Assembly (NCBI GenBank): GCA_964524915.1
Contig: CAZGEB010000003.1
Span: 3,263 to 57,268 of the forward strand
DNA length: 54,006 bases
Reading direction: 5' to 3'
From: an uncultured Candidatus Saccharibacteria bacterium
GTDB taxonomy: Bacteria; Patescibacteriota; Doudnabacteria; UBA920
Position numbers and translations under genes: made by a program. Numbering within the stretch: position 1 is the stretch's first letter; every line of letters starts with the position of its first letter. Positions 2,985 to 52,401 of the stretch are shown here, piece after piece. The notes under the pieces are model-generated. The model was not told where the DNA came from. It saw only the letters and a list, made by a program, of their open reading frames with translations, and made no database searches.

Positions 2985-5018
2985 ATGGAAAGAATCAAGC
3001 GGCATTTGTTTTGGGTACTCCCATCTCTAATTTTTCTGACAGCCCTAGCCTTTAGAACCTACAAACTTTTTATACTCCCAGCCGGACTTTTTCCCGATGA
3101 AGCAGCTAACGGACTGGACATTAATTTAATGGAGCAAGGCCATCTTCAGCCATTTTACGAAAGAGGTAATGGCAGAGAAGCCTTGTTTTTTTATATGCTT
3201 TGGGGTAGTGTAAAAATTTTTGGCAGAAGTCCTTTTGCCCATCATTTAGTCTCAGCCCTGGTTGGCACCCTGGCTGTAGCGGCTTGCTATTTTGTAACCA
3301 AAGAAATATTCAGACTCAAGGCTCACTCCTCACGTCTCACGGCTTATCTGGCCGCCTTCCTCATGGCCGTCTCTTCCTGGCACGTAGTTTTATCCCGCAC
3401 AGCCTTTAGGGCCAATTTAATTCCACTTTTGTCAGCCCTCACTCTGTGGGCGATGTTGAAAATAGTAACAAGAGACAAGCAAAAAGTAACAAGTAAACAG
3501 AATCCCGCTGCAAAATCGCTATTCGCTATTCGCTATTCGCTATTCCCCATCCTTTTCGGCATTTTCTTCGCCCTTGGATTTTATACCTACATAGCTTTTC
3601 GCATCATGATTCCGCTTGTGGGTATTTTGATTCTCTGGCCAACCGCGGCCTTTCTTCTGTCATCCCGTGCTACGACACGGGATCTTTACTTAATTTCTAA
3701 TAGCGAACAAAAAAGTGAAGCCGCCGAACTCCATACGGACAATAAAACAAAAAACGATTTCGGATCAAAACTCAAAATATTATTTCAAAATTTTTGGAAA
3801 CCTTTTTTGATTGCCGCAGTCAGTTTTGTAATAGTCATCTCCCCACTAGCTCATTATTTCTATACTCACCCAGGCAGCTTTGTTGGCCGAAGCGGACAAG
3901 TAAGTGTGTTTAATGTGGAATTAAATCATGGAGATCTAATCGGCACTATTTGGCAAGTAAGCAAGGACTCCATACTCGCCTACTTTACCCACGGAGATGT
4001 AAATTGGCGACACAATATTTCAGGCTTTCCTTTTCTTTCTCCTTTCATCTCGCCTTTTTTCGCCATTGGCTTAATTCTGTGTCTCTTGTTCGCTATTCGC
4101 TACACGCTAAGGCCTATACGCTATCGCCAGAACTACCCTGAATTTCTCCTTACTGGATGGTTTTTTGCCATGCTCTTGCCGGTGATCATGACGGCCGAAG
4201 GCATCCCTCACGGACTAAGAAGTATCGGCACTATTCCAGTAGTATTTATTATCACAGCTTATGGAATGTGTAAGGTTTATAATTGTCTCATGTTGTATGT
4301 CATCCCGGACAAGGCCGAGGCTTTGAGAGGCCGTGATCCGGGATCTTTATTAGAAAGCAAGGATACGGATGCTGAAAAAATATTGCAAGTAAGCAAAGAT
4401 CCCGGACATTTTCCCAAAGCGGAAAATTCCGGGATGACAGAAAAGATTGTCCGCGGGCTATCTTTTCTATATATTGCGTTTCTCCTCATCGCCTTACCCG
4501 TTCAAACTTATCAACTCTATTTTGTTACGGCTGCCAATTCTTCTGAAAACTACGAAGCTTTTCGTGGCGATCTGACAGTTGTCAGCGAATATTTAAAACA
4601 GTATGGACACAGAGAAACCACTTATTTAATTCTAGATAAATTTTCTGTGCAAACCACGGACTACCTCACTACCAAAGTCGGCAAGACTTCTTGCGACAGA
4701 GACTCCGCCTATCGCCCAAATAACTGTATAGATGATGCAAGTAACAAACCTTATACTCAAGTAGACCCAGAGGATTCTTGGCTAGGAGGTATGGCCCCCT
4801 CTCCTTCTGAGGAGAGGGCTGGGAAGAGGTTGGCTTCCGATAATACCAAACCTTCCCCTTACACTTATGGACTTAAAAGCGGAGACGAAATCGTTTTTAC
4901 CATGAGTTCACTTTTCGACATTAAAAAATTCAAACAGTACCACCCGAATGTAAAACTAAAACTTTTTGAAAAAAACACTGCGGGAAAATACATTATGGCA
5001 GTATATGTGGTTCAGTAA
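2985..5018 (+). CDS. GT-C fold glycosyltransferase, ArnT/PMT-like (GT39/GT83 type)
   Basis: N-terminal LFPDEAANGLD loop motif, many TM helices and a soluble C-terminal domain. The gene is interrupted by several repeat-derived peptide segments. Confidence 0.75.
   Translation: MERIKRHLFWVLPSLIFLTALAFRTYKLFILPAGLFPDEAANGLDINLMEQGHLQPFYERGNGREALFFYMLWGSVKIFGRSPFAHHLVSALVGTLAVAACYFVTKEIFRLKAHSSRLTAYLAAFLMAVSSWHVVLSRTAFRANLIPLLSALTLWAMLKIVTRDKQKVTSKQNPAAKSLFAIRYSLFPILFGIFFALGFYTYIAFRIMIPLVGILILWPTAAFLLSSRATTRDLYLISNSEQKSEAAELHTDNKTKNDFGSKLKILFQNFWKPFLIAAVSFVIVISPLAHYFYTHPGSFVGRSGQVSVFNVELNHGDLIGTIWQVSKDSILAYFTHGDVNWRHNISGFPFLSPFISPFFAIGLILCLLFAIRYTLRPIRYRQNYPEFLLTGWFFAMLLPVIMTAEGIPHGLRSIGTIPVVFIITAYGMCKVYNCLMLYVIPDKAEALRGRDPGSLLESKDTDAEKILQVSKDPGHFPKAENSGMTEKIVRGLSFLYIAFLLIALPVQTYQLYFVTAANSSENYEAFRGDLTVVSEYLKQYGHRETTYLILDKFSVQTTDYLTTKVGKTSCDRDSAYRPNNCIDDASNKPYTQVDPEDSWLGGMAPSPSEERAGKRLASDNTKPSPYTYGLKSGDEIVFTMSSLFDIKKFKQYHPNVKLKLFEKNTAGKYIMAVYVVQ
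3516..3543 (+). repeat. Heptamer tandem array (TCGCTAT)x4, in frame in GT-C gene 1
   Basis: Four perfect copies, translated as SLFAIRYSLF. A degenerate second tract lies at about 4087-4130. Confidence 0.9.
3657..3686. mobile_element. Family-A hairpin element, single module, in frame in a GT-C gene
   Basis: CTGTCATCCCGTG-CTACGA-CACGGGATCTTTA. It is 31 of 32 nt identical to the intergenic copy at 21767-21798 and is translated as LSSRATTRDL. Confidence 0.8.
4298..4440. mobile_element. Family-A composite mini-element (two inverted hairpin modules plus spacer), in frame
   Basis: Left end TGTCATCCCGGACAAGG..TCCGGGATC (4298-4346), right end GATCCCGGACA..TTCCGGGATGACA (4397-4439). The outward termini are a perfect 12-bp inverted repeat TGTCATCCCGGA. 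Translated as VIPDKAEALRGRDPGS..KDPGHFPKAENSGMT. Confidence 0.8.
4795..4833 (+). repeat. Family-B element, in frame in GT-C gene 1
   Basis: CCCTCTCC-TTCTGA-GGAGAGGG-CTGGGAAGAGGTTGG, translated as PSPSEERAGKRL. Confidence 0.8.
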
Positions 5019-5021
5019 GTC

Positions 5022-5049
5022 AAGAATAGCGAATAAAGAATAAAGAATT
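5022..5049 (+). repeat. Heptamer array (AAGAATA-like)x4 abutting the ATG of ORF 5050
   Basis: AAGAATA GCGAATA AAGAATA AAGAATT, followed directly by ATG. Confidence 0.8.
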
Positions 5050-5469
5050 ATGAAAAAAGAAACCCCACGAGCAAGCCAAGTGGAAAAACTCAGACAAATC
5101 GCCAAAGAACTGGCATATCGGGCGATAGAAATTTCTAATAAATACTGCGACGCGGAACAAGGGATGGATGGTTGGAGCATGCATGATTTGGTTGGCTCTA
5201 TTGCCGGGGGTGCTGCCGCGGCAGCAGAAATAGATGTTTTAGAAGAGACCCCAGGAAAACACGACGAAGAAATATCAGAAAGAATGCGATTAATGAACTT
5301 GTATTTAGAACTATTAGAAAGAAATGCAGAAGCTCGCCAGCAAGAATTGCAATCTGAAAAACGCGGCAATGAGCAAGCTTGGCTGGCAGCCCTCAAAGCT
5401 AGAGAACAAGGACTTTCACATCACACAGAATATATAAAAGCTGTATTAAAACAATTTAACTATCTATAG
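5050..5469 (+). CDS. Hypothetical helical/coiled-coil protein
   Basis: 139-aa ORF with an ATG start and a charged helical composition, lying between the two GT-C genes. The antisense ORF 4956..5396 looks like a shadow. Confidence 0.5.
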   Translation: MKKETPRASQVEKLRQIAKELAYRAIEISNKYCDAEQGMDGWSMHDLVGSIAGGAAAAAEIDVLEETPGKHDEEISERMRLMNLYLELLERNAEARQQELQSEKRGNEQAWLAALKAREQGLSHHTEYIKAVLKQFNYL

Positions 5470-5492
5470 ACCATCTACATAAAAACAAAACC

Positions 5493-7334
5493 ATGACCAA
5501 ATATAAAAACTATTTATTGTTGGGTATTATAGTTACTGTGGGACTAGGGATGCGGATTTTTCACAATCTAGATATTTCCCTTTGGCATGATGAGGCTTTT
5601 TCAGCACTGCTCATAAAATATCCATGGGGAGAAATGATGCATAGAATTGGTCTAGACGTGCATCCACCTATGTACTATATAGCTTTAAGATTTTGGAGTT
5701 ATATTTTTGGCGACTCACTGGCCGCTCTCCGAGGGTTTTCTATTTTCTTTGGAACAGCAACGATCATAGCAGTGTATGAATTGGTGAAGGCGATTACGAG
5801 TGGCGAGTGGCGAGTGACTAGCACAAAACAAAACTTTTCTGTCATCCCGACCTCCTCTTCTGTCATCCCGGCGGAGGCCGGGATCCACACAAAGCTGGAA
5901 AAATCAAAAGCAATAGATGATAAAGAAAAATACATGGATCCCGGTCTTCCCGCGGTCGCCCAAAGCAGCTCCCTTGTAGAAACCGGGATGACAAGAAATC
6001 TAGTCACTCACAATACGATATACGCTCCACTCCTGGCAGCTCTTCTTGTGGCGATCAATCCTTTTCAAATTGGTTTTTCTCTAGAGGCCCGCATGTATAC
6101 TTTTGGCGCTTTTTTGGCTGTACTAGCTGCGTATTTTCTTGTCCGTGCATTAAAAGCTACAAGCTACAAGCTACAAGCTACAAGCTATTTTATGTTTGCG
6201 GTAGCTTCCGGACTAGCCATACTTACTCATTATTATCTGATCTTCACTATAGCAGCACTATGTTTGTATGGACTCTTCCAAACAGCTACAAGCTACAAGC
6301 TACAAGCTACAAGCTTAAAAGCACAAATAGCAAATTACAAATCTAAAACTTGGCAATTAATCTTTTCTTATATTATTATCGGAGGATCCTTCCTTCCCTG
6401 GCTAAAAATATTTTTCTTTCAGTTCAAACAAGTAGGAAACGGGTACTGGATCCCAAAAATGGACCTCTGGAGCATGCCATCCACTATTTACGAAATGCTA
6501 GTAGGCGCTGGGGTAGATGCCCACAAAACCAGCACACAAATAATTCTGATTCTGGTAACGGCTGCGATTGTTTATATTACGATTTCATTTTTACGCAAAT
6601 CAAATCTCGCTTACAAAGGCTTGATTATTTTTGCCTGGCTAGCTCCTTTTGTGGGCTCGCTACTTTTTGCAGCGCTTGCCAAACTAAAAGGCAGCGATTC
6701 CTCTGTGTACTTGATTCGCTATTTTGCTTTTTCAGCTCCCTTTTTTAGTATAATGCTCGCCACGTGGCTAGGAGAATTACGGGTTATACCTGCCCGCTCG
6801 GATGGTGATAGTTACGGGTTACGGGTTGCAAAACTCAGGATCTTTATTCTTTATTCTTTATTCTTTATTCTGCTAATAACCAATCTCTACACTTTTTCAC
6901 ACTACTGGAAAGAACTAAATGTAAAAGAAAAACCAGGCATGAAAGCCGCCGTGGAACTTTTAAAAAATAATACCAAGCAAGGTGATATTTTGATCGTGGG
7001 AAGCAGCTTTGAATTTTTTAATCTGAAGTATTACTTGAACCAGCTATCAGCTAACAGCTATCAGCTAACAGCTAAGTTGTACAGTGGTGGACAAACAACT
7101 ATAGACAACATGCCGCACTTTGCTGGCACGGCAATTCTAACTAACGAGGATTTGCTTCCAAATTTTGAAAGCATTGATTCTGGTAATACTGTATGGCTGC
7201 TTTGGACCAATGGTTTTGGTGGAAATAAACCAGAAGTACCAAGTAATTGGACGCAAGAAGAAGAACACGGCTTCGCAGAAGTCAGACCATATGTAGGCAC
7301 TTGGATTGTAGTGGATAAATATAAAATCAAATAA
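5493..7334 (+). CDS. GT-C fold glycosyltransferase, ArnT/PMT-like (second paralog)
   Basis: ISLWHDEAFSALL motif after TM1, multiple TM helices and a soluble C-terminal domain. It carries many repeat-derived insertions. Confidence 0.75.
   Translation: MTKYKNYLLLGIIVTVGLGMRIFHNLDISLWHDEAFSALLIKYPWGEMMHRIGLDVHPPMYYIALRFWSYIFGDSLAALRGFSIFFGTATIIAVYELVKAITSGEWRVTSTKQNFSVIPTSSSVIPAEAGIHTKLEKSKAIDDKEKYMDPGLPAVAQSSSLVETGMTRNLVTHNTIYAPLLAALLVAINPFQIGFSLEARMYTFGAFLAVLAAYFLVRALKATSYKLQATSYFMFAVASGLAILTHYYLIFTIAALCLYGLFQTATSYKLQATSLKAQIANYKSKTWQLIFSYIIIGGSFLPWLKIFFFQFKQVGNGYWIPKMDLWSMPSTIYEMLVGAGVDAHKTSTQIILILVTAAIVYITISFLRKSNLAYKGLIIFAWLAPFVGSLLFAALAKLKGSDSSVYLIRYFAFSAPFFSIMLATWLGELRVIPARSDGDSYGLRVAKLRIFILYSLFFILLITNLYTFSHYWKELNVKEKPGMKAAVELLKNNTKQGDILIVGSSFEFFNLKYYLNQLSANSYQLTAKLYSGGQTTIDNMPHFAGTAILTNEDLLPNFESIDSGNTVWLLWTNGFGGNKPEVPSNWTQEEEHGFAEVRPYVGTWIVVDKYKIK
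5797..5817 (+). repeat. Heptamer array (CGAGTGG)x3, in frame in GT-C gene 2
   Basis: CGAGTGG CGAGTGG CGAGTGA, translated as SGEWRVT. Confidence 0.8.
5839..5995. mobile_element. Family-A composite mini-element with an extra partial terminus, in frame
   Basis: Partial CTGTCATCCCGA (5839-5850), then the full module TGTCATCCCGGC-GGAG-GCCGGGATCC (5861-5886). An AT-rich spacer follows, then the inverted module GGATCCCGGTCTTCCCGCGG..GAAACCGGGATGACA (5936-5993). Confidence 0.8.
6155..6187 (+). repeat. Heptamer array (AGCTACA)x4+, in frame in GT-C gene 2
   Basis: Four perfect copies plus a partial copy, translated as KATSYKLQATSY. Confidence 0.9.
6284..6316 (+). repeat. Heptamer array (AGCTACA)x4+, second copy in GT-C gene 2
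   Basis: Four perfect copies plus a partial copy, translated as TATSYKLQATSLK. Confidence 0.9.
6777..6868 (+). repeat. Composite of TTACGGG heptamers, a GC-rich core and (TCTTTAT)x4, in frame in GT-C gene 2
   Basis: TTACGGG TTATACC TGCCCGCTCGGATGGTGATAG TTACGGG TTACGGG .. TCTTTAT x4 (6841-6868), translated as LRVIPARSDGDSYGLRVAKLRIFILYSLFFIL. Confidence 0.8.
7041..7075 (+). repeat. Heptamer array (CAGCTAW)x5, in frame in GT-C gene 2
   Basis: CAGCTAT CAGCTAA CAGCTAT CAGCTAA CAGCTAA, translated as QLSANSYQLTAK. Confidence 0.85.
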
Positions 7335-13603: not shown

Positions 13604-13613
13604 GATTTAATAT

Positions 13614-13655
13614 AGTGAATAGTGAATAGTGAATAGTGAATAGTGAATAGTGAAT
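13614..13655 (+). repeat. Heptamer array (AGTGAAT)x6, 10 nt upstream of the lysS start codon
   Basis: Six perfect copies, followed by the GC-rich segment CTGCCCGCC..GGCAGGCGGG and a further TGAATAGTGA. Confidence 0.9.
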
Positions 13656-13734
13656 AGACTGCCCGCCAGTGAAAGGCTCAGGCAGGCGGGTGAATAGTGA
13701 CGAACCTTGTCCACCACTCACTTCTTATAGCACA

Positions 13735-13760
13735 CCCGCCATAGCATTAGCGGCGACGGG
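13735..13760 (+). repeat. GC-rich CCGCC hairpin (family D) abutting a heptamer array
   Basis: CCCGCCATAGCATTAGCGGCGACGGG. 22 of 26 nt are identical to the reverse complement of 52401-52428. Confidence 0.7.
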
Positions 13761-13765
13761 CTTCT

Positions 13766-13814
13766 CTTACTTCTTACTTCTTACTTCTTACTTCTTACTT
13801 CTTACTTCTTACTT
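13766..13814 (+). repeat. Heptamer array (CTTACTT)x7
   Basis: Seven perfect copies directly after the family-D hairpin. Confidence 0.9.
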
Positions 13815-13820
13815 CAAACA

Positions 13821-17564: not shown

Positions 17565-17591
17565 ATCTACAATCTATCCATATCTACAATC
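17558..17591. repeat. Perfect 17-bp tandem duplication at the mreD stop / mrdA start junction
   Basis: TATCCATATCTACAATC x2. Each copy contains a CAT (ATG on the minus strand) and a CTA (TAG on the minus strand). Confidence 0.9.
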
Positions 17592-23329: not shown

Positions 23330-23331
23330 AA

Positions 23332-23430
23332 AAGTTGTAAGTTGTAAGCCTGCTCCACCGAGGCGGAGCAGATAAGTTGTAAGTAATAAAAAGTATTTAA
23401 CTTACTACTTACTAACTTAATACTTACAAC
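23332..23430. repeat. Composite of AAGTTGT heptamers, a hairpin and inverted heptamers, 2 nt upstream of the rseP start
   Basis: AAGTTGT AAGTTGT AAG, then hairpin CTGCTCC-ACCGAGGC-GGAGCAG, then AAGTTGT AAGTAAT, then inverted ACTTACT ACTTACT AACTTAA TACTTAC. Confidence 0.75.
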
Positions 23431-23433
23431 TAT

Positions 23434-23988: not shown

Positions 23989-24033
23989 AATAATAAAATT
24001 TTTAATTAAATCTATTGTTTCTCTATAACCTAT

Positions 24034-24067
24034 AAGGTATAAGGTATAAGGTAATATTCTACCTTAT
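24034..24067. repeat. Heptamer array (AAGGTAT)x3 plus one inverted copy
   Basis: AAGGTAT AAGGTAT AAGGTAA TATTCT ACCTTAT. It lies between the frr start and the stop of the BNR lipoprotein gene. Confidence 0.8.
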
Positions 24068-25174
24068 CCTCTCCGCGCCCACATACAAGGTTTTTGGTTG
24101 ATCCCTATCAAGTAAAATATAGCGGATTCTACCCCCCTGCGCAACTGCATGCACTTCCCAAGATTGACCACCATTACTAGTAAAATAAACATTTCCTTCC
24201 ACAGCCGCCACCACCCTACCAGAAGAAAATCCAGAAGCAATAGCTCGCACCGCACTTTGATTACTGATATCTTTCACCGGCAAAGCCAAAAAATTCCAAT
24301 TTCCGCCCGAATTCTGTGTACTAAAAACTCCTACGTTGGTTGCCAGATAAATCACATTTCCAGAGTTTGGAGAAAAAGCAATTTGCCAAAATTCATCGGG
24401 CTTTGGCACTACATTGGCGGATTGAATCCTGGGGCCAGAAGAATCTGGTAAATTTGGAGAAGTTTTAATACTCGCCGTCAAGTCAACCAAATCCCCGCCA
24501 CCACCTTTTGCCACAAAAAGACCATCTTGTGATTGTAAAATATACAGATCGTTTCCTTGCCAATAAACTTGCGCTACATTTCGATCCAAATTATAAGCCA
24601 GTGTCCAGGATAGACCTTTGTCTTTGCTGATGAGCACACTACCAGTAGAAAGCCCAGCGGCTATCCAGGTGGCATTTGAGTGCACAGACAAAGTTTGTAC
24701 TATGCCTTGCTGACTATCCGCATAAACCACACCCCAAGTCTTCCCTCCATCTTGTGTGGTCAAAATTCTACCCGAAGCACCACTAGCACCTCCCACAAAA
24801 ATCTTTTGACTGTCAACTGGATCCGCTACCACCACACTCGCGTTTACACTAGGCAATAAAACTTTCCAAGACTCTCCCTCGTTTTCACTCACGTACACTC
24901 CTTTTTTTGCTGCGGCTGCATAGAGTCTTTTGGGGCCCGCCAAAGACCAAGCCAAGTTTCGTACATCAGCCTCCACCAAATCAGTCCCGACCTCGGTCGT
25001 AATCTTGCCATTTTTACCCACTGTTTCCACCGTAGTTTTGTTTATCGCCACCCAGTCCGCCCCAGAATTTGTGGTTTTGAAAATACCACCAGCCCCACCT
25101 GAGCTAAAAGGGGTTGAGCACGATACTGCCAAAAATGGCAGGAAACCCAAAAATAATAAATTACGAAATTTCAT
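24059..25174 (-). CDS. BNR/Asp-box repeat beta-propeller lipoprotein
   Basis: Lipobox LAVSCS and six Asp-box-like repeats (TNSGADW, SENEGESW, TQDGGKTW, SKDKGLSW, TQNSGGNW, TSNGGQSW). Confidence 0.7.
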   Translation of the reverse strand: MKFRNLLFLGFLPFLAVSCSTPFSSGGAGGIFKTTNSGADWVAINKTTVETVGKNGKITTEVGTDLVEADVRNLAWSLAGPKRLYAAAAKKGVYVSENEGESWKVLLPSVNASVVVADPVDSQKIFVGGASGASGRILTTQDGGKTWGVVYADSQQGIVQTLSVHSNATWIAAGLSTGSVLISKDKGLSWTLAYNLDRNVAQVYWQGNDLYILQSQDGLFVAKGGGGDLVDLTASIKTSPNLPDSSGPRIQSANVVPKPDEFWQIAFSPNSGNVIYLATNVGVFSTQNSGGNWNFLALPVKDISNQSAVRAIASGFSSGRVVAAVEGNVYFTSNGGQSWEVHAVAQGGRIRYILLDRDQPKTLYVGAERIR

Positions 25175-26567: not shown

Positions 26568-26619
<52 letters not shown>

Positions 26620-26631: not shown

Positions 26632-27795
26632 ATGCAAACTCCTCCCCCCAATTTAATAGTCATTGCCGGCCCCACATCCAGCGGAAAATCTGAGCTAGCG
26701 GTCAAAATCGCAAAAAAAATTGGCGGGGAAATCATTTCCGCAGATTCCCGCCAAGTTTACCGCGGTTTAAATATTGGAACAGGCAAAGTTGAGGGAGAAT
26801 GGCAGAAAGTATCCTTAATCCGTAATCCTTTATCCTTAACAAACACAAAACAGCAAACAGGAAAAGATAAAAATGTAATTTCAAATTCAAACCCCCCGCT
26901 CTTAGTCAAGGATCAAAGATTAAAGATTAAGGATAGCAATGTTTTTGTTTACAAAAAAGTATTACACCACTGTATAGACTTTGTAAACCCCAAAAAACAA
27001 TACACTGTCAATGATTTTAAAAAAGATGGACAAAAAGCCATTGAGGATATTTATTCTCGCGGAAAAATCCCGATCATCTGTGGCGGCACAGGCCACTATA
27101 TAGATGCACTGATTTTTGATCAAAATATTCCAGAAGTTCCACCAGATGAAAAATTTAGAAAAAAAATGGAAAAAAAATCCGCAGAAAATCTTTTCTTGCT
27201 ATTGAGCAAAAAAGATCCAGCCCGCGCGAGTAATATAGATAGAAATAATAAACGTCGCCTCATCCGCGCCCTAGAAATCATCCACCATACCAAAAAACCC
27301 GTCCCCTATTTTTCCCCCTCCCCTAGTGAGGGGAGGGCTGGGGAGAGGTTGCACCACGACCGCATAGACCTGCCCACTCCTGCTGACCGGGAATCCATAT
27401 TATCAAATCCTGGATCCTGGATCGCAGTCGCAGAGCCTCCTTTGTCCGGGACGACAAGATTAGAAATAATACTTTTGACTCCACCCCGCCAAGAACTTTA
27501 CCAAAAAATCGAAAAGCGCCTCATTCAAAGAGTGAAGATGGGCATGGTTGAAGAAGTGCTAAAGTTACACCAAAACGGCCTATCCTGGAAACGCATGGAG
27601 TCCCTCGGTCTAGAGTACCGTCACATTGCAAGATTTTTACAAGAAAATAAAAATGTATTCCTAAAAACTAAAAACTCGCAACTAAAAACTCAATTTCTAT
27701 CTTCCTCTCACTTTCAAACTCTCCTTCAAGAAAGCAAAAATTATAGTAAACGCCAAGAAACTTGGTTTAGAAAATATAAAACAGCCGCAAACTAA
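26632..27795 (+). CDS. miaA: tRNA dimethylallyltransferase
   Basis: IAGPTSSGKSELAV P-loop, ISADSRQVYRGLNIGTGK and GGTGHYIDALIF. At 387 aa it is enlarged by several repeat-derived insertions. Confidence 0.9.
   Translation: MQTPPPNLIVIAGPTSSGKSELAVKIAKKIGGEIISADSRQVYRGLNIGTGKVEGEWQKVSLIRNPLSLTNTKQQTGKDKNVISNSNPPLLVKDQRLKIKDSNVFVYKKVLHHCIDFVNPKKQYTVNDFKKDGQKAIEDIYSRGKIPIICGGTGHYIDALIFDQNIPEVPPDEKFRKKMEKKSAENLFLLLSKKDPARASNIDRNNKRRLIRALEIIHHTKKPVPYFSPSPSEGRAGERLHHDRIDLPTPADRESILSNPGSWIAVAEPPLSGTTRLEIILLTPPRQELYQKIEKRLIQRVKMGMVEEVLKLHQNGLSWKRMESLGLEYRHIARFLQENKNVFLKTKNSQLKTQFLSSSHFQTLLQESKNYSKRQETWFRKYKTAAN
26811..26934. repeat. Insertion in miaA bounded by inverted heptamer arrays
   Basis: ATCCTTA ATCCGTA ATCCTTT ATCCTTA (26811-26838) .. 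CAAGGAT CAAAGAT TAAAGAT TAAGGAT (26907-26934), translated as VSLIRNPLSLTN..KDQRLKIKDS. Confidence 0.8.
27314..27351 (+). repeat. Family-B element, in frame in miaA
   Basis: CCCTCCCC-TAGTGA-GGGGAGGG-CTGGGGAGAGGTTG, translated as PSPSEGRAGERL. Confidence 0.8.
27386..27458. mobile_element. Degenerate family-A-like module fused to heptamers, in frame in miaA
   Basis: ACCGGGAATCC..ATCCTGGATCCTGGATCGCAGTCGCAG..GTCCGGGACGACAAG, translated as DRESILSNPGSWIAVAEPPLSGTT. Confidence 0.45.
27661..27695 (+). repeat. Degenerate heptamer array (CTAAAAA-like)x5, in frame in miaA
   Basis: CTAAAAA CTAAAAA CTCGCAA CTAAAAA CTCAATT, translated as LKTKNSQLKTQF. Confidence 0.7.
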
Positions 27796-37744: not shown

Positions 37745-37836
37745 AAAAAAATAATTTCAAATAATAAACTCCAAACCAAACTCAAAATTTAAACTGACCA
37801 TCATTGATTTAAAATTTGAAATTTATAATTTGTCAT

Positions 37837-38118
37837 TTACAATATCGCTTTTACTTTCAAATATCCATCTTTCACAGCTGGCGCCTGTGCCAAAATCTCT
37901 TCACGGGAGCTAGTCAGCACAGCTTCGTCGCGCCTCTGCACATTCACCAAGCCCGTCACCTGGGAGACTTCTTCTACCCCATCTATATCTACCTGCATTA
38001 AAGCGTCTATATAATCAAAAATCGCGGACAAATCCTTTTGGAATTTTTCCACTTCTTCATCAGTTAATTTAATGCGAGCCAAAGTCGCCAATTTTTTCAC
38101 ATCATCTTTTGTCAGCAT
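37837..38118 (-). CDS. gatC: Asp/Glu-tRNA amidotransferase subunit C
   Basis: 93 aa with LARIKLTDEEVEKFQKDLSAIFDYIDAL, lying upstream of gatA. Confidence 0.9.
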   Translation of the reverse strand: MLTKDDVKKLATLARIKLTDEEVEKFQKDLSAIFDYIDALMQVDIDGVEEVSQVTGLVNVQRRDEAVLTSSREEILAQAPAVKDGYLKVKAIL

Positions 38119-39221: not shown

Positions 39222-39256
39222 GAATAGAATAAAGAAGTAAGAATAGAGAATAGAGA
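39222..39256 (+). repeat. Degenerate heptamer array (AATAGAG-like)x5, 13 nt upstream of the ccdA start
   Basis: GAATAGA ATAAAGA AGTAAGA ATAGAGA ATAGAGA. Confidence 0.7.
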
Positions 39257-39284
39257 ATGGGGGGAAAAAACGGGATTACTAAAA

Positions 39285-44900: not shown

Positions 44901-46394
44901 TTGACTACTATCACTGCCAGAAGGAGCAAAGCCATTTCCACCACCATAAGTAGAAATAGTTGAGCCATTTGTGCAAGTCCATTTCAAACTACTAGGAAAT
45001 GTAACTGTTCCACCAGTCGGATCTGCTGTCAGTGTGGCAGTTGGTGGTGACTGCGTTGGAGGAGGAGCTGAAATATACACATCGCACGCACTAGAAACAC
45101 TTTCATAAACAGCCACGACAGTGTGAATACCAGTTGTACCAAAACTAGTTGGGTGACTAGAACCACTACCATCCGGGGCGCCATCCTTAAACCAATTAAT
45201 AGCAGATCCAGTGCCGCCAGATTTAGTGGCACTGAAAGACAGTGTTTGGCCTGTTTGTCCACTGGTGGGGCCACTGCAGGTGACGAAAGGAGGGGGTAAG
45301 CTTACCGTAATCGTAACACTACCTGTGCCAGTACCACCTGGACCAACACAAGTTCCGGAAATAGTTATGGCACTAGATAAAGCTCCGGTATTGTAGCCAC
45401 TACCAGAAGTGCCATTCCAAGCACCACCGTTTAAGCTACAGCTAGTGGCATCTGTGGATGTCCAACTCACAGAAGAATTGTATCCAGATGCTGCATTTAC
45501 TGGATTTGGATTTGCTGTAATAGTAAGGGTCGGAGCAGGCTGCGTTGGAGGAGGTTCTGAAATATACACATCGCAAGCACTGGAAACACTTTCATAAACA
45601 GCTGTAACAACATGTATGCCGGTTGTATCAAAACTTGTTGGGTAGCTATTACCACTACCGCCCTGCATACCATCCTTAAACCAATTAACAGCGGATCCAC
45701 TGCCACCAGATTTAGTAGCACTGAAAGACAGTGTTTGCCCTTTTAATCCGCTGGTGGGGCCGCTGCAGGTGACGAAAGGAGGGGTGGGTTGTGGTGGTGG
45801 AGAAACTGGGCTTGTAGCAGAAACAGCAGTTGTGGCAGTACCAGTACCCGCAGAATTTAAACAAGTAATGTCAAAAAAATGATCACCAAAAGAATCCACA
45901 GTTACATTTTGAGAGCCGCCCGAACCAGATGGAGAAAAACCAAAAGGTCCACCAAAAGTGGCCACGGTGCCGCCATTACTACAGCTCCAAGACAAAGTAC
46001 TAGAATATGGATATGTACCACTAGAAGGACTAGCGGACAAACTAGCAACAGGAGGTTGTACTGATGGTGGTGGTGGAGGACCTGCCACACACGTACACCG
46101 CTGAATCGCCCCACAAAAATCGCTGCCGCAATACTGATAAGATACGTCTTGGCAAGCTGCTACTTGCCCACTACCACAGCTAGAGTCCAAACATGTTTCA
46201 TAAGTAAAACCACCGCATTCAAAATTTGGTCCACAAAAAGTCGGGCCACCATTATAGTTATCCCGACCAGTGGCACACCCTTCCACATCTGCATTGGTCG
46301 AACGAGCCAAAACGAAAAAACTCAAAAAGGCTAGGAAAAAGCTAGCCGCGAGCAAAACTCCTCTAAAACTAAATAGTTTTTGTTTCAAAGACAT
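41904..46394 (-). CDS. Giant secreted surface protein (1496 aa): Cys-rich head, about 12 Ig/PKD-like modules joined by poly-Pro linkers, DUF11-like C-terminal module
   Basis: Signal peptide (LLAASFFLAFLSFFVLARS) and a Cys-rich N-domain (CATGRDNYNGGPTFCGPNFECGG..). Repeated modules contain LSW/LNW..C..G motifs separated by PPPPPP runs. Internal DNA repeats are present. Confidence 0.85.
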   Translation of the reverse strand: MSLKQKLFSFRGVLLAASFFLAFLSFFVLARSTNADVEGCATGRDNYNGGPTFCGPNFECGGFTYETCLDSSCGSGQVAACQDVSYQYCGSDFCGAIQRCTCVAGPPPPPSVQPPVASLSASPSSGTYPYSSTLSWSCSNGGTVATFGGPFGFSPSGSGGSQNVTVDSFGDHFFDITCLNSAGTGTATTAVSATSPVSPPPQPTPPFVTCSGPTSGLKGQTLSFSATKSGGSGSAVNWFKDGMQGGSGNSYPTSFDTTGIHVVTAVYESVSSACDVYISEPPPTQPAPTLTITANPNPVNAASGYNSSVSWTSTDATSCSLNGGAWNGTSGSGYNTGALSSAITISGTCVGPGGTGTGSVTITVSLPPPFVTCSGPTSGQTGQTLSFSATKSGGTGSAINWFKDGAPDGSGSSHPTSFGTTGIHTVVAVYESVSSACDVYISAPPPTQSPPTATLTADPTGGTVTFPSSLKWTCTNGSTISTYGGGNGFAPSGSDSSQTLTFSSPGTYTFDITCMNSAGVASAAASVMASNPAQPLPTLTITANPTSVLVGGHSLVSWSSTNATSCSLNGGSWGGTGGTNYDTGALNTPGSITISGACTGPGGTCGNMATSSGCDSETITVNALPPPPPPAAIHMSVSLSATSPVNNGQTSSLNWTTLNAQSPMECHSGGGPWSMSGGGVTGYATSSTLLNSGSPYTFVVVCTDQDDVVSASDSVSVNPPPPPPPPAGVAPTVSLNISLNPTTALAPNNITLSWGPVSGTAPISCVASGSWSGTKSSSVGGETFYNQPADFYSYTLTCTNSYGASSDTVSATITNPPAPPPPPPPPVGAPSCSANPSSVAIGETAGLSASGGNNTYTWSAPGGNLGSGSGSGSSVSYNTSGLKTVTVTSAGLSGNCSVDVVAGPNIFLDANPSSGMSPLNSSVLTWGPVSGSGPIASCSGSGTGFSTGGASSGADTVGPFTTGTYNYSVTCLSTMSYYAPVSVPVSITVSSLPPPPPPPAPVTSVNLSVSSNSVAWGGSVNLTWTSTNTSSCSSGDFPASGTNSSSPVNSGSLTTNPTTFTLVCLESGTGNQVYDTETVTVGNPPAGTPKAKLEVQVAGSASWSKTVTVTPGTVLNYQWSSENGTAFSSTYSVNPAVRYCDTVVPGGVPPSGAWVAGNSAGQSLGAVVKACQAGKIFTIEYFVTGAGLTVSDSITVIVVPPVATTWDLVVDTHSVPYGGSVNLTWTSTNTSQCYASTTSYPFATNGATNSSSPVNSGPLLTPSPPAVEFGLTCFESGTTTITVLNDSEFVTVGAMPPPPPPPVTIGSTQPNLDITAVRGIPLCYSAISDNDAKVGGDPDNGCPQSVMPIYDGDAIQLKLNFHNNGTSSYTEPFDVRMTVRNLTAATGAWSVVPVCSSSCGVSGVTVSGSNPYVLDFSVTPKGAGLVAGATWSFNLEAKTLAPNATGGAYRFQAEAWINYPDIGLQCVDDPAVPCDRRTPAILVLRGATAPDIKETR
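45051..45297 (-). repeat. Internal ~247-bp repeat copy 1 within the giant surface protein gene
   Basis: It starts TGCGTTGGAGGAGG and ends GCAGGTGACGAAAGGAGGGG. It encodes PPFVTCSGPTSG..SFSATKSGG..NWFKDG..VYESVSSACDVYIS. Confidence 0.85.
45541..45786 (-). repeat. Internal ~247-bp repeat copy 2 (offset 490 bp)
   Basis: It has the same boundaries as copy 1. By eye the two copies are roughly 80-85 percent identical, with substitutions involving all four bases. Confidence 0.85.
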
Positions 46395-49245: not shown

Positions 49246-51162
49246 TTAACGAATTTCTTCGTATTTGGGTACCCCCAAATTTCGAACCACTGGGATGACT
49301 GGAGTTTTGAGGGCGCTAGAGGTAAAACCATTTAAATAAGCGGTGCTTTGCATACGGAAAATCTCCCCACTCCCCAAAGGTGCTACGGTTTTTCCAGTAA
49401 ACTCCACAGACCACACTCCACCTGAAGGCAAAGTCTTGCCACCTTGCGGCTCTAAGATAAACGACAAGGTGTTTGAACCTCTAGCGTAACTCGTAGAGCT
49501 GACGCGCAAGTCTTTGCACTCCACTTGGCTGTCGCCACACAAAACCCTAGCCCCCCAATCCAATTCTTTTTTGGCATTGACAGGACCAAGTCCAGTTAAG
49601 AGGACTTTCATAGAAATTTCTTCGGTATAATCAGCGGTACCACCATTTACAATATGAACCCGGAAAGACACTTGATCATTTTCGGCAATCGGCATGACCT
49701 TGGCCACCTCTGCATCACTTTGGAAATTGCGAATATGGGCAGGAGAAAAAATACTCACTCCACGCACGGAAACAATATCTTGATTTGATTGATTTAAATC
49801 TGGACCACAAGGCCAAACCACGGCCACTTGACCAGCTGGAAGTCTTGAAGTTTTACCGCCAGCAAAAGCTTCTATAGCATAAGAATACAAAGACTGCGGA
49901 CTTCCCGCTCCAGAAAGCTGGTTTGGCAAAAAGCCCAAGTGAACAGCTTTGGGATCACTTACAACCAAAGTCATGCCGCTGTCGGTGTTTATAATTCTAA
50001 ATCCTTCCACAGGAGCGGAAGTGGATGCTAATTTCCACACGGCCAAAAGTTCTCCACAGGGTACCTCACCATAACTTTGAGAAATGTTGCCAGGCACGGT
50101 CTTGGTGTTGTAAACAGCCGCTGATTCTAATTTTATATTGGAATCATCTGTATTGGAACAATCTTTTTCTTGCAAACTCACAGTAACGCTACCCAGCTCT
50201 AAATCTCCATCAAAAGGAGCAATTAGCTTGAGTATTGTACCGTTTTTTATAATATCACCAGTGTTATGAGTGGCTAGTGTGTTGGCTGGCACAGAAACTA
50301 CTACTGAATTATCAGAAACTCCAGCACCACCAAAAATACGCACCTCGGAAAACACATTGGCGTTGGCTCGCAAAACCAAACTACCAACAGTGTTACCCTT
50401 GCATACAGAAATAGAAGAAGGGGCATCCAAAAGACCAACCGCATCACCACGAACACTTAAAATAGCGCCGGATAAATTGCAACCAGTGGCTCCATTGGGC
50501 AAATTCCAACCTTTGCCAGATACTGTAGTGATACCTTTTTTCAAACCAATAATTTTTGCAGAAGAGCCGCTCGCATCAGTTACTTTGGCTACAACAGGAT
50601 TTTCTACTATGAATTGTCCGCCCGTCCAACCATCTGGGGCAAAAGCCGTAACATTATCACCCACCACTACTTCACTACTAGACAAAAAAACAGCAGCAAA
50701 AGAAGAAGGGCAATTCCCACCAGGAGGAGGGTTTATCGGTGGCGGTGGACCACCAGGTGGTGGGTTTGGAGGGCTTATGGGTGGAGGTGGAGGCATGCCA
50801 TCTGGATTACCATCATTTGATGCATTCGGTGCAAAACCAGCACAGCTTTCTTGAGTCCCAGCAAACCCAGGTATCTGATCAACTGAATAAGTATAAGAAT
50901 AATTTCCACCCTCTGGACCAAGAGTAGTTGGTCCACCAGAAATAAATCCTCGGGCATTTTGATCATTTGAACCAGTAGCACTAGTGGAATAACCAACTAT
51001 TTTAGTAGGATTAAATTGATCGTATATAGGCGTATGACTACATGAAATAGTAGCCTGAATAGTACCAGCGGCAGACAAAGGAGTCACTAAAACTCCAAAG
51101 GAAAGACAAGCTCCGATTATTGCAACCAAAAAATTGTAAATAGGATGGGACTTAAAATACAT
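49246..51162 (-). CDS. Secreted surface protein (638 aa) sharing its C-terminal module with the 1496-aa protein
   Basis: Signal peptide (FLVAIIGACLSFGVLVTPLSAAG) and a poly-Pro linker (PPPPPISPPNPPPGGPPPPINPPPGG). The C-terminal ~190 aa align with the end of ORF 41904..46394. The track start at 51210 is GTG, so ATG 51162 is used. Confidence 0.75.
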   Translation of the reverse strand: MYFKSHPIYNFLVAIIGACLSFGVLVTPLSAAGTIQATISCSHTPIYDQFNPTKIVGYSTSATGSNDQNARGFISGGPTTLGPEGGNYSYTYSVDQIPGFAGTQESCAGFAPNASNDGNPDGMPPPPPISPPNPPPGGPPPPINPPPGGNCPSSFAAVFLSSSEVVVGDNVTAFAPDGWTGGQFIVENPVVAKVTDASGSSAKIIGLKKGITTVSGKGWNLPNGATGCNLSGAILSVRGDAVGLLDAPSSISVCKGNTVGSLVLRANANVFSEVRIFGGAGVSDNSVVVSVPANTLATHNTGDIIKNGTILKLIAPFDGDLELGSVTVSLQEKDCSNTDDSNIKLESAAVYNTKTVPGNISQSYGEVPCGELLAVWKLASTSAPVEGFRIINTDSGMTLVVSDPKAVHLGFLPNQLSGAGSPQSLYSYAIEAFAGGKTSRLPAGQVAVVWPCGPDLNQSNQDIVSVRGVSIFSPAHIRNFQSDAEVAKVMPIAENDQVSFRVHIVNGGTADYTEEISMKVLLTGLGPVNAKKELDWGARVLCGDSQVECKDLRVSSTSYARGSNTLSFILEPQGGKTLPSGGVWSVEFTGKTVAPLGSGEIFRMQSTAYLNGFTSSALKTPVIPVVRNLGVPKYEEIR

Positions 51163-51187
51163 GCGATAAAATAATTTCAATAAAAAA

Positions 51188-51718
51188 TTAAATCTTTGGA
51201 CTAGTGGCACTAGCCTCTACGATAAAGGTATTTTTTTCTACACCTTCTGACAAAACGATAGACAAAGAGGTCCCGTTTAGAGAAGCCCCCAAAAGCGTAA
51301 ACTTATCTTGTTCCGAAAAAGTCAAAATCTGCCAACCACCTGATTCTAAAAACTTTTTAAAATCCTGTACTGCACTCTTTCGGTCGCCCGAAGACTCCCA
51401 TTTTCTTACAGAAAAATGAGAACCTGAAGGTGAATCAGCTACGTAATTATAAAGAACCCGACCCTGACTCAAAAAAGGCATGTCCTGAGGAATACCATCG
51501 GGAATTACGGATGATTCTATATCAAGCTTTTGTATATCAGTAACCACTTCAGAAGATCTTCCATCTCTTCCCTGCCACCAACTAATAAAAACACCGGAGC
51601 CAACCAAAAGCAATACCACTAAAACAAAAACCAAGCCCCGTTTCAACCTACCGCCAGAAAAAGAAGAAAAAGATTTGGTAAGTACACTAGAAGAATCTAA
51701 AAGTGGATGTTCAATCAT
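51188..51718 (-). CDS. Hypothetical membrane-anchored protein
   Basis: Single TM (LVFVLVVLLLVGSGVFISWW) plus a ~120-aa extracytoplasmic domain. The track start is TTG, so ATG 51718 is used. Confidence 0.5.
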   Translation of the reverse strand: MIEHPLLDSSSVLTKSFSSFSGGRLKRGLVFVLVVLLLVGSGVFISWWQGRDGRSSEVVTDIQKLDIESSVIPDGIPQDMPFLSQGRVLYNYVADSPSGSHFSVRKWESSGDRKSAVQDFKKFLESGGWQILTFSEQDKFTLLGASLNGTSLSIVLSEGVEKNTFIVEASATSPKI

Positions 51719-51745
51719 GCATTTATTATACCACAAAAGAGCGAA

Positions 51746-52357
51746 TCAATTTAAGGAATGTTTTTTCTGACTCTTGCCAAGCCATTTCCAAAAAATGGCT
51801 GAGGAAACTATACCAAGGACGATCAAAATAAGCACCACCCCAAAATATTCAGTGGCACGGAGCCATTGCTGCCCGAACCACCAGCCAAGCGCCACAGCAA
51901 CCGCAACTTCCAAAACTTCGCCTGAGCCCTCAAAAATCCAAAATTTACCATAAGGATAACGAGAAAGGCCGGCTACCACGTTTACAGAAGGGGCCACTGC
52001 TGTCATAAATCGACTAAGTACGATAGTAACCCAAGGATGATCGTGCACCTGAGAGGCGACGGTTTTGAATCGTTTATGCGCTACAAGTTTTCCCAAAAGA
52101 GGCAGTTTTTCTACATTGCCATGCAGACGTCTAGCTAGCCAGTAGCCGGCATGGTCACCGGCTAAATTGCCAAGAATACCAACGATCAAAAGCCCGGTCA
52201 AATCAAACACGCCTATGGTTGCCAAAAAACCACAAGCAATCATCATGCTACCGGTCGGAATAGGCAAAGCAAAAGCCCCCAAAAAAGTAAAGATGAAAAT
52301 GGCAACATAACCATAAATATCTACCAATTTCAGCATGTCCATCAAAATTGGATTCAT
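51746..52357 (-). CDS. dedA: DedA-family membrane protein
   Basis: FALPIPTGSMMIACG and GNLAGDHAGYWLARRL motifs, with 4-5 TM helices. Confidence 0.8.
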   Translation of the reverse strand: MNPILMDMLKLVDIYGYVAIFIFTFLGAFALPIPTGSMMIACGFLATIGVFDLTGLLIVGILGNLAGDHAGYWLARRLHGNVEKLPLLGKLVAHKRFKTVASQVHDHPWVTIVLSRFMTAVAPSVNVVAGLSRYPYGKFWIFEGSGEVLEVAVAVALGWWFGQQWLRATEYFGVVLILIVLGIVSSAIFWKWLGKSQKKHSLN

Positions 52358-52374
52358 GGTATTATTATAGCATT

Positions 52375-52401
52375 AGCAGTAAGTAGTAAGTAGTAAGTAG
52401 T
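52375..52401 (+). repeat. Heptamer array (AGTAGTA-like)x4, 17 nt upstream of the dedA start, fused to a family-D hairpin
   Basis: AGCAGTA AGTAGTA AGTAGTA AGTAGT, then CCGCCGCCGCTAAAGCTATGGCGG. Confidence 0.85.

Follow-up and report, generated by a model that had tools for sequence, protein, structure and literature searches.

Heptanucleotide tandem arrays that vary by whole units and are remodelled in place in a Patescibacteria/CPR genome segment

Gene content and host

We analyzed a stretch of 54,006 nucleotides (contig CAZGEB010000003.1 of assembly GCA_964524915.1, positions 3,263 to 57,268 of the forward strand), here called the window, through which tandem arrays of 7-nt units are scattered. 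An earlier reading made from the letters alone (the sequence-only reading) had noticed about twenty of these heptanucleotide arrays, and the present analysis follows them up. The window encodes aminoacyl-tRNA synthetases, MreBCD, PBP2, GreA, FolD, Frr, RseP, MiaA, GatA/GatB, and HolB, the DNA polymerase III delta-prime subunit. Two glycosyltransferases of the GT39/PMT_2 type and very large proline-rich surface proteins are also encoded, and numerous proteins have no Pfam match. The other contigs compared are labelled L001 to L182; L115 is the 64-kb contig Ga0315552_1000073, L181 belongs to assembly GCA_023245955.1, and L182 belongs to GCA_964612745.1.

Among the GTDB species representatives, the nearest GatA proteins were 68% and 63% identical and came from metagenome-assembled genomes labelled “Candidatus Saccharibacteria” (L001 and L002). 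The GatA matches that bear names in a large protein database are called “Candidatus Doudnabacteria” or “Patescibacteria group.” Because both its gene content and its nearest homologues belong to the candidate phyla radiation (CPR), the host is, judged by its genes, a Patescibacteria/CPR bacterium and not a cyanobacterium. A cyanobacterial origin of the window was ruled out on the same grounds, and the setting of heterocystous cyanobacteria, from which the sequence-only reading took its analogy, does not apply. CPR genomes are about 1 Mb in size and have minimal replication and repair sets.

Shine-Dalgarno-like motifs are missing 5' of about 41 of the 46 window genes. TATAAT-like boxes lie just 7 to 19 nt from some starts (DedA, the first PMT_2 gene, and miaA/cupredoxin), with examples at 52358-52375, 2960-2984, and 26620-26631. 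The scarcity of the former, together with the closeness of the latter to starts, suggests mRNAs that would be leaderless or have very short leaders. Neither tRNAs nor Rfam matches at the gathering threshold were found in the window, and a structured RNA or tRNA origin of the arrays is therefore unsupported.

Period 7 is in sharp and lineage-specific excess

Tandem Repeats Finder (TRF) returned about 30 period-7 rows between positions 486 and 52401, and all units named in the sequence-only reading were located where it had placed them. In total, the window holds 18 clear (core) and about 8 degenerate period-7 arrays (Table 1). In an exact scan, 13 arrays of period 7 were perfect and had 2.5 or more copies, compared to 0.02 expected per run in second-order Markov simulations of the window. 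Among arrays of at least three copies, the same scan counted 10 of period 7, 1 of period 6, and 0 of periods 4, 5, and 8 to 15. A mismatch-tolerant, period-controlled census gave 2, 1, 18, 0, 1, 0, and 0 arrays for periods 5 to 11, in agreement with the constant unit length that had been noted. The same census in 1.85 Mb of other bacterial loci gave 46, 45, 14, 7, 2, 0, and 0; there, the density of period 7 was about 44-fold lower, and periods 5 and 6 outnumbered it.

The core arrays amount to 532 nt, about 1% of the window, at 0.33 arrays per kb (within 54 kb), and their mean GC content is 38% compared to 41.6% for the window. Most arrays are perfect, and they have between 2.4 and 7.4 copies. 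The earlier list was incomplete, since it had passed over the arrays at 36985 (in gatA), 27407, 2930, 3464, and 4091.

The description of units as differing from locus to locus turned out to be overstated. AAGCTAC is used at three loci and AAAGAAT at two, and the units form families within one mismatch of each other. Among the 18 arrays there are 4 pairs with identical units (0.24 expected, P ~0.0005) and 12 pairs within one mismatch (4.0 expected, P ~0.007) under a null in which 7-mers were drawn from the window and coding constraints were ignored. This restricted vocabulary points to a sequence preference or to some copying or conversion from one array to another.

Across relatives, the array trait is confined to certain lineages, patchily distributed, and sharply restricted to period 7. 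No period-7 array was present in the 21 kb covered of either L001 or L002, the nearest GTDB representatives. Relatives with GatA identities of 73-78% had 1 to 3 each in 8-21 kb and none of other periods, and L177, a strain 84% identical to the window, had 6 in only 2.6 kb. L115, which has the same gene order frr-rseP-proS-mreB as the window at protein identities of 29% (Frr), 39% (RseP), 51% (ProRS), and 60% (MreB), had 11 in 21 kb, and seven of its eight perfect ones are intergenic. The other CPR loci compared were array-poor.

A pattern of this kind could come from a dedicated or variant enzyme, such as an unusual replisome or repair component, or a horizontally transferable factor, that writes heptamers and is common to Nostocales, Xanthomonas, Beggiatoaceae, and some CPR bacteria. 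The very sharp specificity for 7, with neighbouring periods flat, would fit such an enzyme, as would the patchiness (window clade and L115 array-rich; L001, L002, and other CPR loci poor) and the ability of arrays to overwrite unique sequence, for which the second PMT_2 gene provides the case below. For another heptamer repeat, the same patchiness across phyla has been reported and horizontal transfer discussed (PMC4679880). However, no candidate gene appeared among 20 window open reading frames (ORFs) scanned against Pfam, and the units come from local sequence, hence from no fixed template. We regard a heptamer-writing enzyme as improbable.

Near-identical strains differ by whole units

In all, 24 contigs were obtained by exact-protein look-up, for which Frr, GreA, the cupredoxin, the 139-aa ORF, and a PMT_2 variant served as queries. 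These contigs stem from other samples, assembled independently (JGI, ENA, and Logan), and match the window at 84-100% identity. Runs that contain this organism include SRR12487045, SRR12487046, SRR23702517, ERZ4216102, and the JGI 33000453xx samples. A scan of metagenome contigs with RseP yielded no near relative (best identity, 51%), and the MGMT-like protein had 0 exact matches on record. All 24 contigs carried arrays at the same sites. Alignments with strains at least 98% identical contained 10 real indels, nine of 7 nt and one of 21 nt, and every one lay within an array; the other gaps were runs of N only. Four spacer arrays varied by whole units between strains while their flanks were identical: TATAAGG (window 24031) with 3.3 or 4.3 copies, AAGTAAG (13765) with 6.3 or 7.3, CTATTCA (13612) with 3.6, 6.6, or 7.6, and TAGTGGC (26568) with 6.4 or 7.4. 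Variation was greatest in the longest arrays, those of 6-7 copies, and no in-gene array changed copy number among close strains. Whole 7-nt units are added to and dropped from the arrays at a far higher pace than that at which point substitutions build up.

Could the arrays be an artefact of assembly or sequencing? Short-read contigs do tend to stop in arrays, several of them breaking inside one, and two JGI contigs have chimeric ends. On the other hand, the same arrays recur at the same sites in a dozen or more independent assemblies (JGI, ENA, and Logan; several are 100% identical), reading frames stay open through the in-gene arrays, and orthologous arrays are found in other species. This recurrence rules the artefact out for practical purposes, and we give it next to no credence.

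The JGI metagenome contigs L154 (4450-5069) and L165 (1-207) change abruptly to unrelated high-GC sequence. We interpreted these ends as chimeric assembly joins and not as strain variation. The L165 junction adjoins a small repeat element in miaA, and L172 also has an end that does not align with the window, which may be either a chimera or genuine variation.

Orthologous arrays are remodelled in place

The gatA array adds no length to the protein. It substitutes for a variable linker between DPKDSTT and GLKVG. Among the best 120 homologues examined, GatA proteins at 73-78% identity have linkers that are likewise periodic over 7 residues but with different residues (ATSYKLQ/ATS, VTDYRLQ/VTD, IADFRLQ/IAD, and ISNFKFQ/ISN). 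In more distantly related GatA proteins, the linker is 17 residues long, follows the pattern VPxYSKNLxxDIK, and is not repetitive. At the DNA level, five lineages have orthologous arrays of about 4.4 copies that agree in position and frame. The unit is GCTACAA in the window (perfect), GTTACAG in L179 (perfect), ATTGCAG in L181 (one mismatch), ATTTCAA in L178 (degenerate), and CCTACAA in L182 (degenerate). Because these arrays share site, frame, and copy number but not the unit, the alignments show one old array that was kept homogeneous while its unit drifted (concerted evolution).

For the second PMT_2 gene, we aligned the window with the 84%-identical strain L177 using MAFFT. At site 6151, the window has (AAGCTAC)5 and L177 a degenerate (AAGGTAT)n of equal length. 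At site 6841, (TCTTTAT)4.4 in the window corresponds to (TCGCTAT)5.4 in L177, and the array at site 6284 is common to both with one substitution between them. The L177 units AAGGTAT and TCGCTAT also serve in the window, at 24031 and 3514, respectively. The window array at site 7039 stands where L177 has a non-repetitive stretch that is 63 nt longer, with a probable seed, CAGCAAA, at its left edge. Since this seed sits at the same flank in a strain that lacks the array, the unit at 7039 is of local origin, and the comparison shows that arrays can overwrite adjoining unique sequence. Between 6782 and 6841, the window differs from L177 by +28 and -7 nt, a net of +21 nt that retains the frame, and about 16-30 nt of homologous DNA around this interval are apparently read in different frames in the two strains. 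Alignment within arrays is ambiguous by whole units, and around 6782-6841 only the net 21 nt is certain.

Counted from start to start, the arrays at 6151 and 6284 are separated by 133 nt (19 x 7) and hence share one 7-nt register; a conserved transmembrane segment is encoded in between. The shared register could be a coincidence (1 in 7) or a trace of long-range slippage or conversion.

Taken together, these comparisons show arrays that persist for long at orthologous sites with all copies changing together. Arrays at orthologous sites in relatives, which the sequence-only reading had thought worth looking for, are thus present, with site and period kept and the unit changed. Its view that one repeat had not simply spread also stands, given this remodelling in place and the whole-unit changes between near-identical strains.

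Placement relative to genes

Of the 18 core arrays, eight fall within the non-coding 10.5% of the window (binomial P = 2e-4), and several arrays end 1-17 nt from a start codon. The ten in-gene core arrays are confined to four genes, namely both PMT_2 genes, miaA, and gatA, and all are in frame. A heptamer in frame is read in three phases and gives a 7-residue peptide repeat, so that (GCTACAA)n encodes ATSYKLQ. In alignments with homologues, the in-gene arrays occupy variable loops or lineage-specific insertions that are absent from distant homologues. The CAGCTAA array at 7039 alternates with CAGCTAT, which removes the in-frame TAA of a pure array. These data show that selection filters array survival. 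Spacers tolerate any copy number, and inside genes arrays survive only in variation-tolerant loops and with a net length change that is a multiple of 21 nt. Selection for heptads at the protein level was ruled out, as about half of the arrays lie outside coding sequence and those within it show the exact three-frame codon relation of a DNA heptamer.

The inverted pair in MiaA adds 126 nt in frame, at a hypervariable hot spot where each lineage of the clade has different content. In L182 MiaA (17382-18620), the hot spot has a tandem repeat of about 10 residues (SNLSLHRQAP / SNLSLQRQAF / SNLSLRGSF) and no heptamer arrays, and the hot spot thus hosts different repeat types in different lineages.

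Placement bears on whether the arrays are adaptive contingency loci, in which copy number would switch or tune neighbouring genes by altering promoter or 5' leader spacing, or frameshift glycosyltransferases, and so give phase variation. Envelope glycosyltransferases are a gene class that is typically phase-variable in pathogens (introduction of PMC4679880), and at least nine arrays lie in the two GT39/PMT_2 envelope glycosyltransferase genes. The polymorphism between near-identical strains would also fit, as would the many arrays located 1-17 nt from starts or between divergent genes. However, with only 10.5% of the window intergenic, spacers are so short that arrays within them are almost automatically close to start codons. 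There are no Shine-Dalgarno sites for arrays to displace, and displacement of ribosome-binding sites was ruled out for an organism with almost no such motifs. Housekeeping genes are equally hit (lysS, frr, rseP, miaA, gatA, and gatB), and switching would be harmful there. The copy number of the gatA array is constant across the clade, and the in-gene arrays had no frameshifted alleles in the seven strain contigs L170 to L176, a small sample. Like the arrays described here, the contingency loci of Haemophilus, Neisseria, and Moraxella undergo slippage in promoters, leaders, and coding sequence and have glycosyltransferases among their targets. Their units are mostly 1-5 nt, although heptanucleotide phase-variable cases are documented in H. 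influenzae (PMC8262952), and on/off alleles have been observed for them, whereas none was seen here and housekeeping genes are involved. We therefore hold it to be quite unlikely that the arrays as a group are contingency loci.

Hairpins and inserts associated with arrays

All four inverted pairs listed in the sequence-only reading exist (repeats I1, I2, I19, and I24) and fold better than shuffled sequence, with z scores of -2.5, -2.7, -6.7, and -3.4, respectively. Simple direct arrays are unstructured. The strongest of these hairpins makes up the frr-rseP spacer, which consists of (AAGTTGT)n, the complement (ACTTACT/ACTTACA)n, and an internal GC hairpin at 23350-23371; its z score of -6.7 as DNA becomes -8.9 as RNA on the transcribed strand. 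L156 and L159 have an unrelated hairpin in its place (z = -5.3). The gatC-gatA spacer also contains inverted arrays, with z scores of -1.7 in the window, where they are decayed, -4.9 in L179 (AATTTTC), and -6.6 in L181 (AGTAATT), and in each lineage one unit is common to both arms. By analogy with hairpins between co-transcribed genes elsewhere, those of frr-rseP and gatC-gatA may have acquired a role in the stabilization or processing of transcripts.

GC-rich inserts of 23-32 nt lie within or beside arrays at 13658, 13738, 23349, 6782, and 52402, and the array resumes in register after two of them. Tested alone, most of these inserts had no significant structure.

These features raise the question of very small mobile elements, similar to small dispersed repeats (SDRs), miniature inverted-repeat transposable elements, or repetitive extragenic palindromic (REP) sequences, which would either leave 7-bp target duplications or footprints or transpose as heptamer-armed hairpins. 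Mobile SDRs of 21-27 nt were reportedly described in Nostoc by Elhai et al. in 2008. Three GC-rich inserts would fit, each 23-32 nt long and breaking an array in register (13658, 23349, and 6782, the last of them absent from a sister strain), as would the exchange of the frr-rseP spacer hairpin in another strain, the restricted vocabulary with one unit at three loci, and the other families of in-frame palindromic inserts in the genome (see below). Yet copy number changes without any element and between perfectly identical flanks, and orthologous arrays evolve in place over the long term. Arrays with the same unit share only the unit, with no common flanking sequence and no defined ends. There are no terminal inverted repeats and, apart from the array itself, no target duplications in the window, and the small inserts mostly lack significant structure. 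The 20 window ORFs scanned against Pfam included no transposase, reverse transcriptase, recombinase, or RAYT-like gene. Small mobile elements are thus an unlikely source of the arrays.

REP and bacterial interspersed mosaic elements (BIMEs), Rickettsia palindromic elements (RPEs), and SDRs share with the arrays intercistronic hairpins at a fixed position whose content turns over between strains. RPEs are in-frame palindromic inserts, which are matched by other repeat families of the window and not by the heptamer arrays. In contrast to all of these, the heptamer arrays have no fixed sequence or termini and change by slippage of units, not by insertion and excision.

Comparison with known heptamer repeats

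Tandem heptanucleotide repeats were described in Calothrix by Mazel et al. in 1990 (as cited in PMC4692102). An over-representation of heptanucleotide simple sequence repeats (SSRs) in scattered lineages was described by Mrazek et al. in 2007 and explained by polymerase slippage, with a polymerase contact length of about 7 nt in the model (both as summarized in PMC4679880 and PMC4692102). Rehm et al. in 2015 found a strong intergenic heptamer excess in Nostoc and Xanthomonas, with inverted pairs and with length and sequence differing between close relatives, and stated that there was then no detailed literature on heptameric repeats (PMC4692102). MacGregor in 2015 described TAACTGA repeats immediately 5' of start codons, with a few within ORFs (PMC4679880). 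For cyanobacterial STRRs (short tandemly repeated repetitive sequences), hairpins between co-transcribed genes are known, e.g., hupS-hupL, and transcript stability or translational coupling has been proposed (PMC2670836). The title of Vioque 1997 places an STRR in a functional RNase P RNA gene (cited in PMC2858038), and the strain variability of STRRs has been used for fingerprinting (PMC5088731).

The STRRs of filamentous heterocyst-forming cyanobacteria, like the arrays in the window, are tandem 7-nt units with several unit families per genome and a mostly intergenic position. They also form complementary-array hairpins between co-transcribed genes, here frr-rseP and gatC-gatA, occur inside a functional gene, and vary between strains. 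The differences are the host, here a Patescibacteria/CPR bacterium with a small-genome gene set, and the many arrays translated in frame in protein genes, including the essential gatA. The units also differ. Those of Mazel in 1990 are said to be CCCCAGT, TTGGTCA, and CAACAGT, and these classical units are not tandem in the window. A search of the window for tandem STRR1-3, TAACTGA, GGGAATC/GGGGAYT, and GTGATTA found none, which rules out membership of these named heptamer families.

The long SSRs (LSSRs) of Mrazek, Guo and Shah 2007 and of Huang and Mrazek 2014 are reportedly longer than expected by chance, dominated by 7 nt among units of 5-11 nt, scattered over the phylogeny, and unstable in copy number in a slippage-like way, as here. 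In Xanthomonas, relatives vary in length and sequence and inverted pairs occur (PMC4692102), again as here. The density in the window is very high by comparison, and whereas SSR units in coding sequence are usually multiples of three (according to the introduction of PMC4679880), heptamers are in frame here.

The TAACTGA direct repeats found in marine Beggiatoaceae and in some cyanobacteria and Bacteroidetes have 2-6 copies, mostly a few nucleotides upstream of start codons (PMC4679880). As in the window, their leaders lack Shine-Dalgarno motifs, the few ORF arrays sit at peripheral or variable positions, and the distribution is patchy (PMC4679880). That system has essentially one unit, for which a sequence-specific binding protein was suggested. 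The window has many units and no tandem TAACTGA, and a single sequence-specific regulator of its arrays is therefore unlikely.

In every structural respect examined, the arrays work like STRRs or heptanucleotide LSSRs, while by host and unit sequence they are not STRRs. The STRR analogy of the sequence-only reading was a fair one, in view of the hairpins between co-transcribed genes and the array in a functional gene, but it's not the only established analogue, as had been stated, because the heptanucleotide SSR excess and its slippage explanation date from 2007. Our literature search found no paper that pairs CPR/Patescibacteria with such repeats, which is not proof of novelty.

Proposed origin of the arrays

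We think it probable that the arrays are hypermutable heptanucleotide microsatellites of the STRR or long-SSR type, made and homogenized in place and then selected. An array would be seeded from a local chance repeat and would then expand, contract, and be homogenized by strand slippage in replication or repair, with a strong, lineage-specific preference for a 7-nt register. Two processes, alone or together, could keep inverted arms matched: selection for an intercistronic hairpin and template switching in quasi-palindromes, the latter an established mutational mechanism. Occasional conversion between arrays would account for the recurring units. Most arrays are probably non-adaptive by-products of little function.

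Several observations weigh against this account. An array of 4.4 copies in an essential gene is viable only in 3-unit steps, which makes homogenization by simple slippage awkward; for gatA, homogenization would need +3/-3 excursions or conversion without length change. Purely local slippage does not predict the restricted vocabulary or the reuse of window units by L177. The small GC-rich inserts within several arrays hint at an element-related process, and the stability of in-gene arrays relative to spacer arrays is confounded by length (4-5 compared to 6-7 copies). Generic slippage leaves unexplained why period 7 alone is affected and why only some lineages are; no ruler was identified, and the nearest representatives, L001 and L002, are free of arrays in the 21 kb available for each.

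Array-rich lineages might possess a specific 7-nt ruler that drives reiterated synthesis in exactly that register, either a transferable factor or an altered part of the replisome or repair machinery, a suggestion that we find tenable but doubtful. If it is correct, these CPR arrays would owe their origin to the same factor as the STRRs of Nostocales and the heptamer SSRs found in Xanthomonas and Beggiatoaceae. The length-measuring mechanism put forward in the sequence-only reading gains from the period-7-specific excess and goes beyond it in positing the ruler itself.

Heptamer repeats have been known since 1990 and their SSR excess since 2007. The present case brings the phenomenon into the CPR, with its very small genomes and minimal replication and repair machinery, and since some of the relatives are rich in arrays and others poor, it is practical to seek the cause by comparison. 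It adds population evidence, in that arrays make up every indel between the close strains compared. It also provides a non-triplet repeat that is homogenized within an essential protein gene, in three frames and across a clade. As the arrays show, repeats whose unit is not a triplet are able to reshape protein loops, write over ancestral sequence, and yield compensated frameshifts. On the practical side, arrays fragment short-read CPR assemblies and could act as strain markers.

TABLE 1 Heptamer arrays and other repeats or genes of the window and of related contigs
Position (strand)	Feature	Location	Details
2860..2959	Inverted degenerate pair, AGTGAGG-like/CTCACTC-like (repeat I2)	GT2 start and spacer before first PMT_2 gene	Arms 2x31 nt, 38 nt apart; TRF row 2930-2956; fold z = -2.7
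3464-3496 (+)	Degenerate (AGTAACA)4.7	In frame, first PMT_2/GT39-like gene	3464..3545 arrays encode SLFAIRYSLF
3514-3545 (+)	Perfect (TCGCTAT)4.3-4.6	In frame, first PMT_2/GT39-like gene	
4091..4124 (+)	Degenerate (CGCTATA)4.9	In frame, first PMT_2 gene	Peptide LFAIRYTLRPIRY
5022..5061 (+)	(AAGAATA)n, perfect core 5031-5048	Intergenic	Stops 1 nt before start codon of 139-aa ORF; same in seven strains and the 84% strain
5797..5816 (+)	(CGAGTGG)2.9	In frame, second PMT_2 gene	Opens a ~70-aa lineage-specific insertion
6151..6187 (+)	(AAGCTAC)5.3	In frame, second PMT_2 gene	Peptide ATSYKLQATSY
6284..6326 (+)	(AGCTACA)4.6, then decayed units	In frame, second PMT_2 gene	
6782..6809 (+)	GC-rich 28-nt insert	Divides (ATTACGG/GTTACGG)n array	Absent from L177
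6811-6827 (+)	(GTTACGG)2.4	In frame, second PMT_2 gene	
6841-6871 (+)	(TCTTTAT)4.4	In frame, second PMT_2 gene	
7039..7075 (+)	(CAGCTAA/CAGCTAT)5.3	In frame, second PMT_2 gene	Effectively period 14
13612..13700	(ATAGTGA)6.6, alleles also written CTATTCA	Ends 8 nt from LysRS start codon	Broken by 32-nt GC-rich hairpin (13658-13689), then continues as GTGAATAGTGA
13765..13815	(TCTTACT)7.3, also written AAGTAAG	Intergenic	Adjoins GC-rich 13738-13764
23330..23433 (-)	Compound hairpin	Entire frr-rseP spacer	
24031..24069	(TATAAGG)3.3 and short complementary arm ACCTTATCC	BNR gene stop codon	Hairpin
26568..26619	(CTAGCCA)7.4, also written TAGTGGC	Between divergent cupredoxin and miaA	Ends 12 nt before miaA start codon; two short-read contigs terminate within it
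26810..26935 (+)	Inverted degenerate pair, (ATCCTTA)n/(TAAGGAT-like)n (repeat I1)	In MiaA	34-nt arms, 58 nt apart; fold z = -2.5
27407..27423 (+)	(ATCCTGG)2.4	In frame, composite MiaA insertion	
27661..27690 (+)	Degenerate (CTAAAAA)4.3	In frame, MiaA	
36082..36103	Degenerate (ATCAAAA)3.1	Overlaps gatB start codon	
36985..37015 (-)	Perfect (GCTACAA)4.4, coding strand	In frame, essential gatA	Linker ATSYKLQATS
37753..37843 (-)	Decayed inverted heptamer-periodic repeat, AAATTTC/ATTTAAA-like (repeat I22)	gatC-gatA spacer	
39226..39258	(AGAATAA/AGAATAG)4.7	Intergenic, DsbA-like and CcdA-like genes	
52375..52401	(AGTAAGT)3.9	Between divergent DedA and MGMT-like genes	Directly followed by GC-rich hairpin-like segment 52402-52427
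4797-4832 (+)	~45-nt element	First PMT_2 gene	Also in L177
10965-11000 (-)	~45-nt element	SerRS gene	
27316-27351 (+)	~45-nt element	MiaA gene	
4299-4438	Palindromic in-frame insertion	PMT_2 gene	
5841-5992	Palindromic in-frame insertion	PMT_2 gene	
17558-17592	Perfect 17-nt direct repeat TATCCATATCTACAATC, 2.1 copies	PBP2 start and mreD-PBP2 spacer	
21755-22201 (-)	Small GIY-YIG nuclease-family ORF	Between proS and rseP	
28610-29825	1.2-kb segment with GC-rich hairpins		Inverted TCATTGCGAG pair, 29310-29336/29408-29434
41904-46394 (-)	Gene for 1496-aa putative surface protein		9-nt repeats at 43398-44241
49246-51210	Second large protein		Proline-rich runs
L178 4653-5024	23S_rRNA_IVP-like gene	gatA-gatB spacer	
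L179 1927-2295, 10173-10562	23S_rRNA_IVP-like genes		
L182 11576-11947	23S_rRNA_IVP-like gene	gatA-gatB spacer	

Other repeats and neighbouring genes

The ~45-nt element occurs in frame in three conserved genes. It consists of a perfect 22-nt hairpin, CCCTCCCC-N6-GGGGAGGG, followed by CTGGGGAGAGGTTG, and its copies encode peptides like PSPSEGRAGERL. The palindromic in-frame insertions in both PMT_2 genes are about 140-150 nt long, are bounded by GTCATCCCGG...CCGGGATGAC, and encode peptides such as VIPAEAGIH. They are absent from homologues at 45-50% identity and resemble RPEs. Copies of GTCATCCCG are also found at 3659, 21769, and 52798, with a reverse-complement copy, CGGGATGAC, at 53515.

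The GIY-YIG ORF stands alone in the window; it is 88 aa long in strain L154 and adjoins a GTCATCCCG repeat copy. In L178, L179, and L182, small genes that match 23S_rRNA_IVP lie between gatA and gatB, one of them also matching bAvd weakly; the gatA-gatB spacer of the window is 182 nt long and has no such gene. The segment at 28610-29825 has a single short ORF (114 aa), several GC-rich hairpins, and 0 Rfam matches at the gathering threshold. The 1496-aa putative surface protein has poly-proline linkers between its repeated domains, encoded by 9-nt repeats of the GGTGGTGGA type, and the second large protein likewise contains proline-rich runs.

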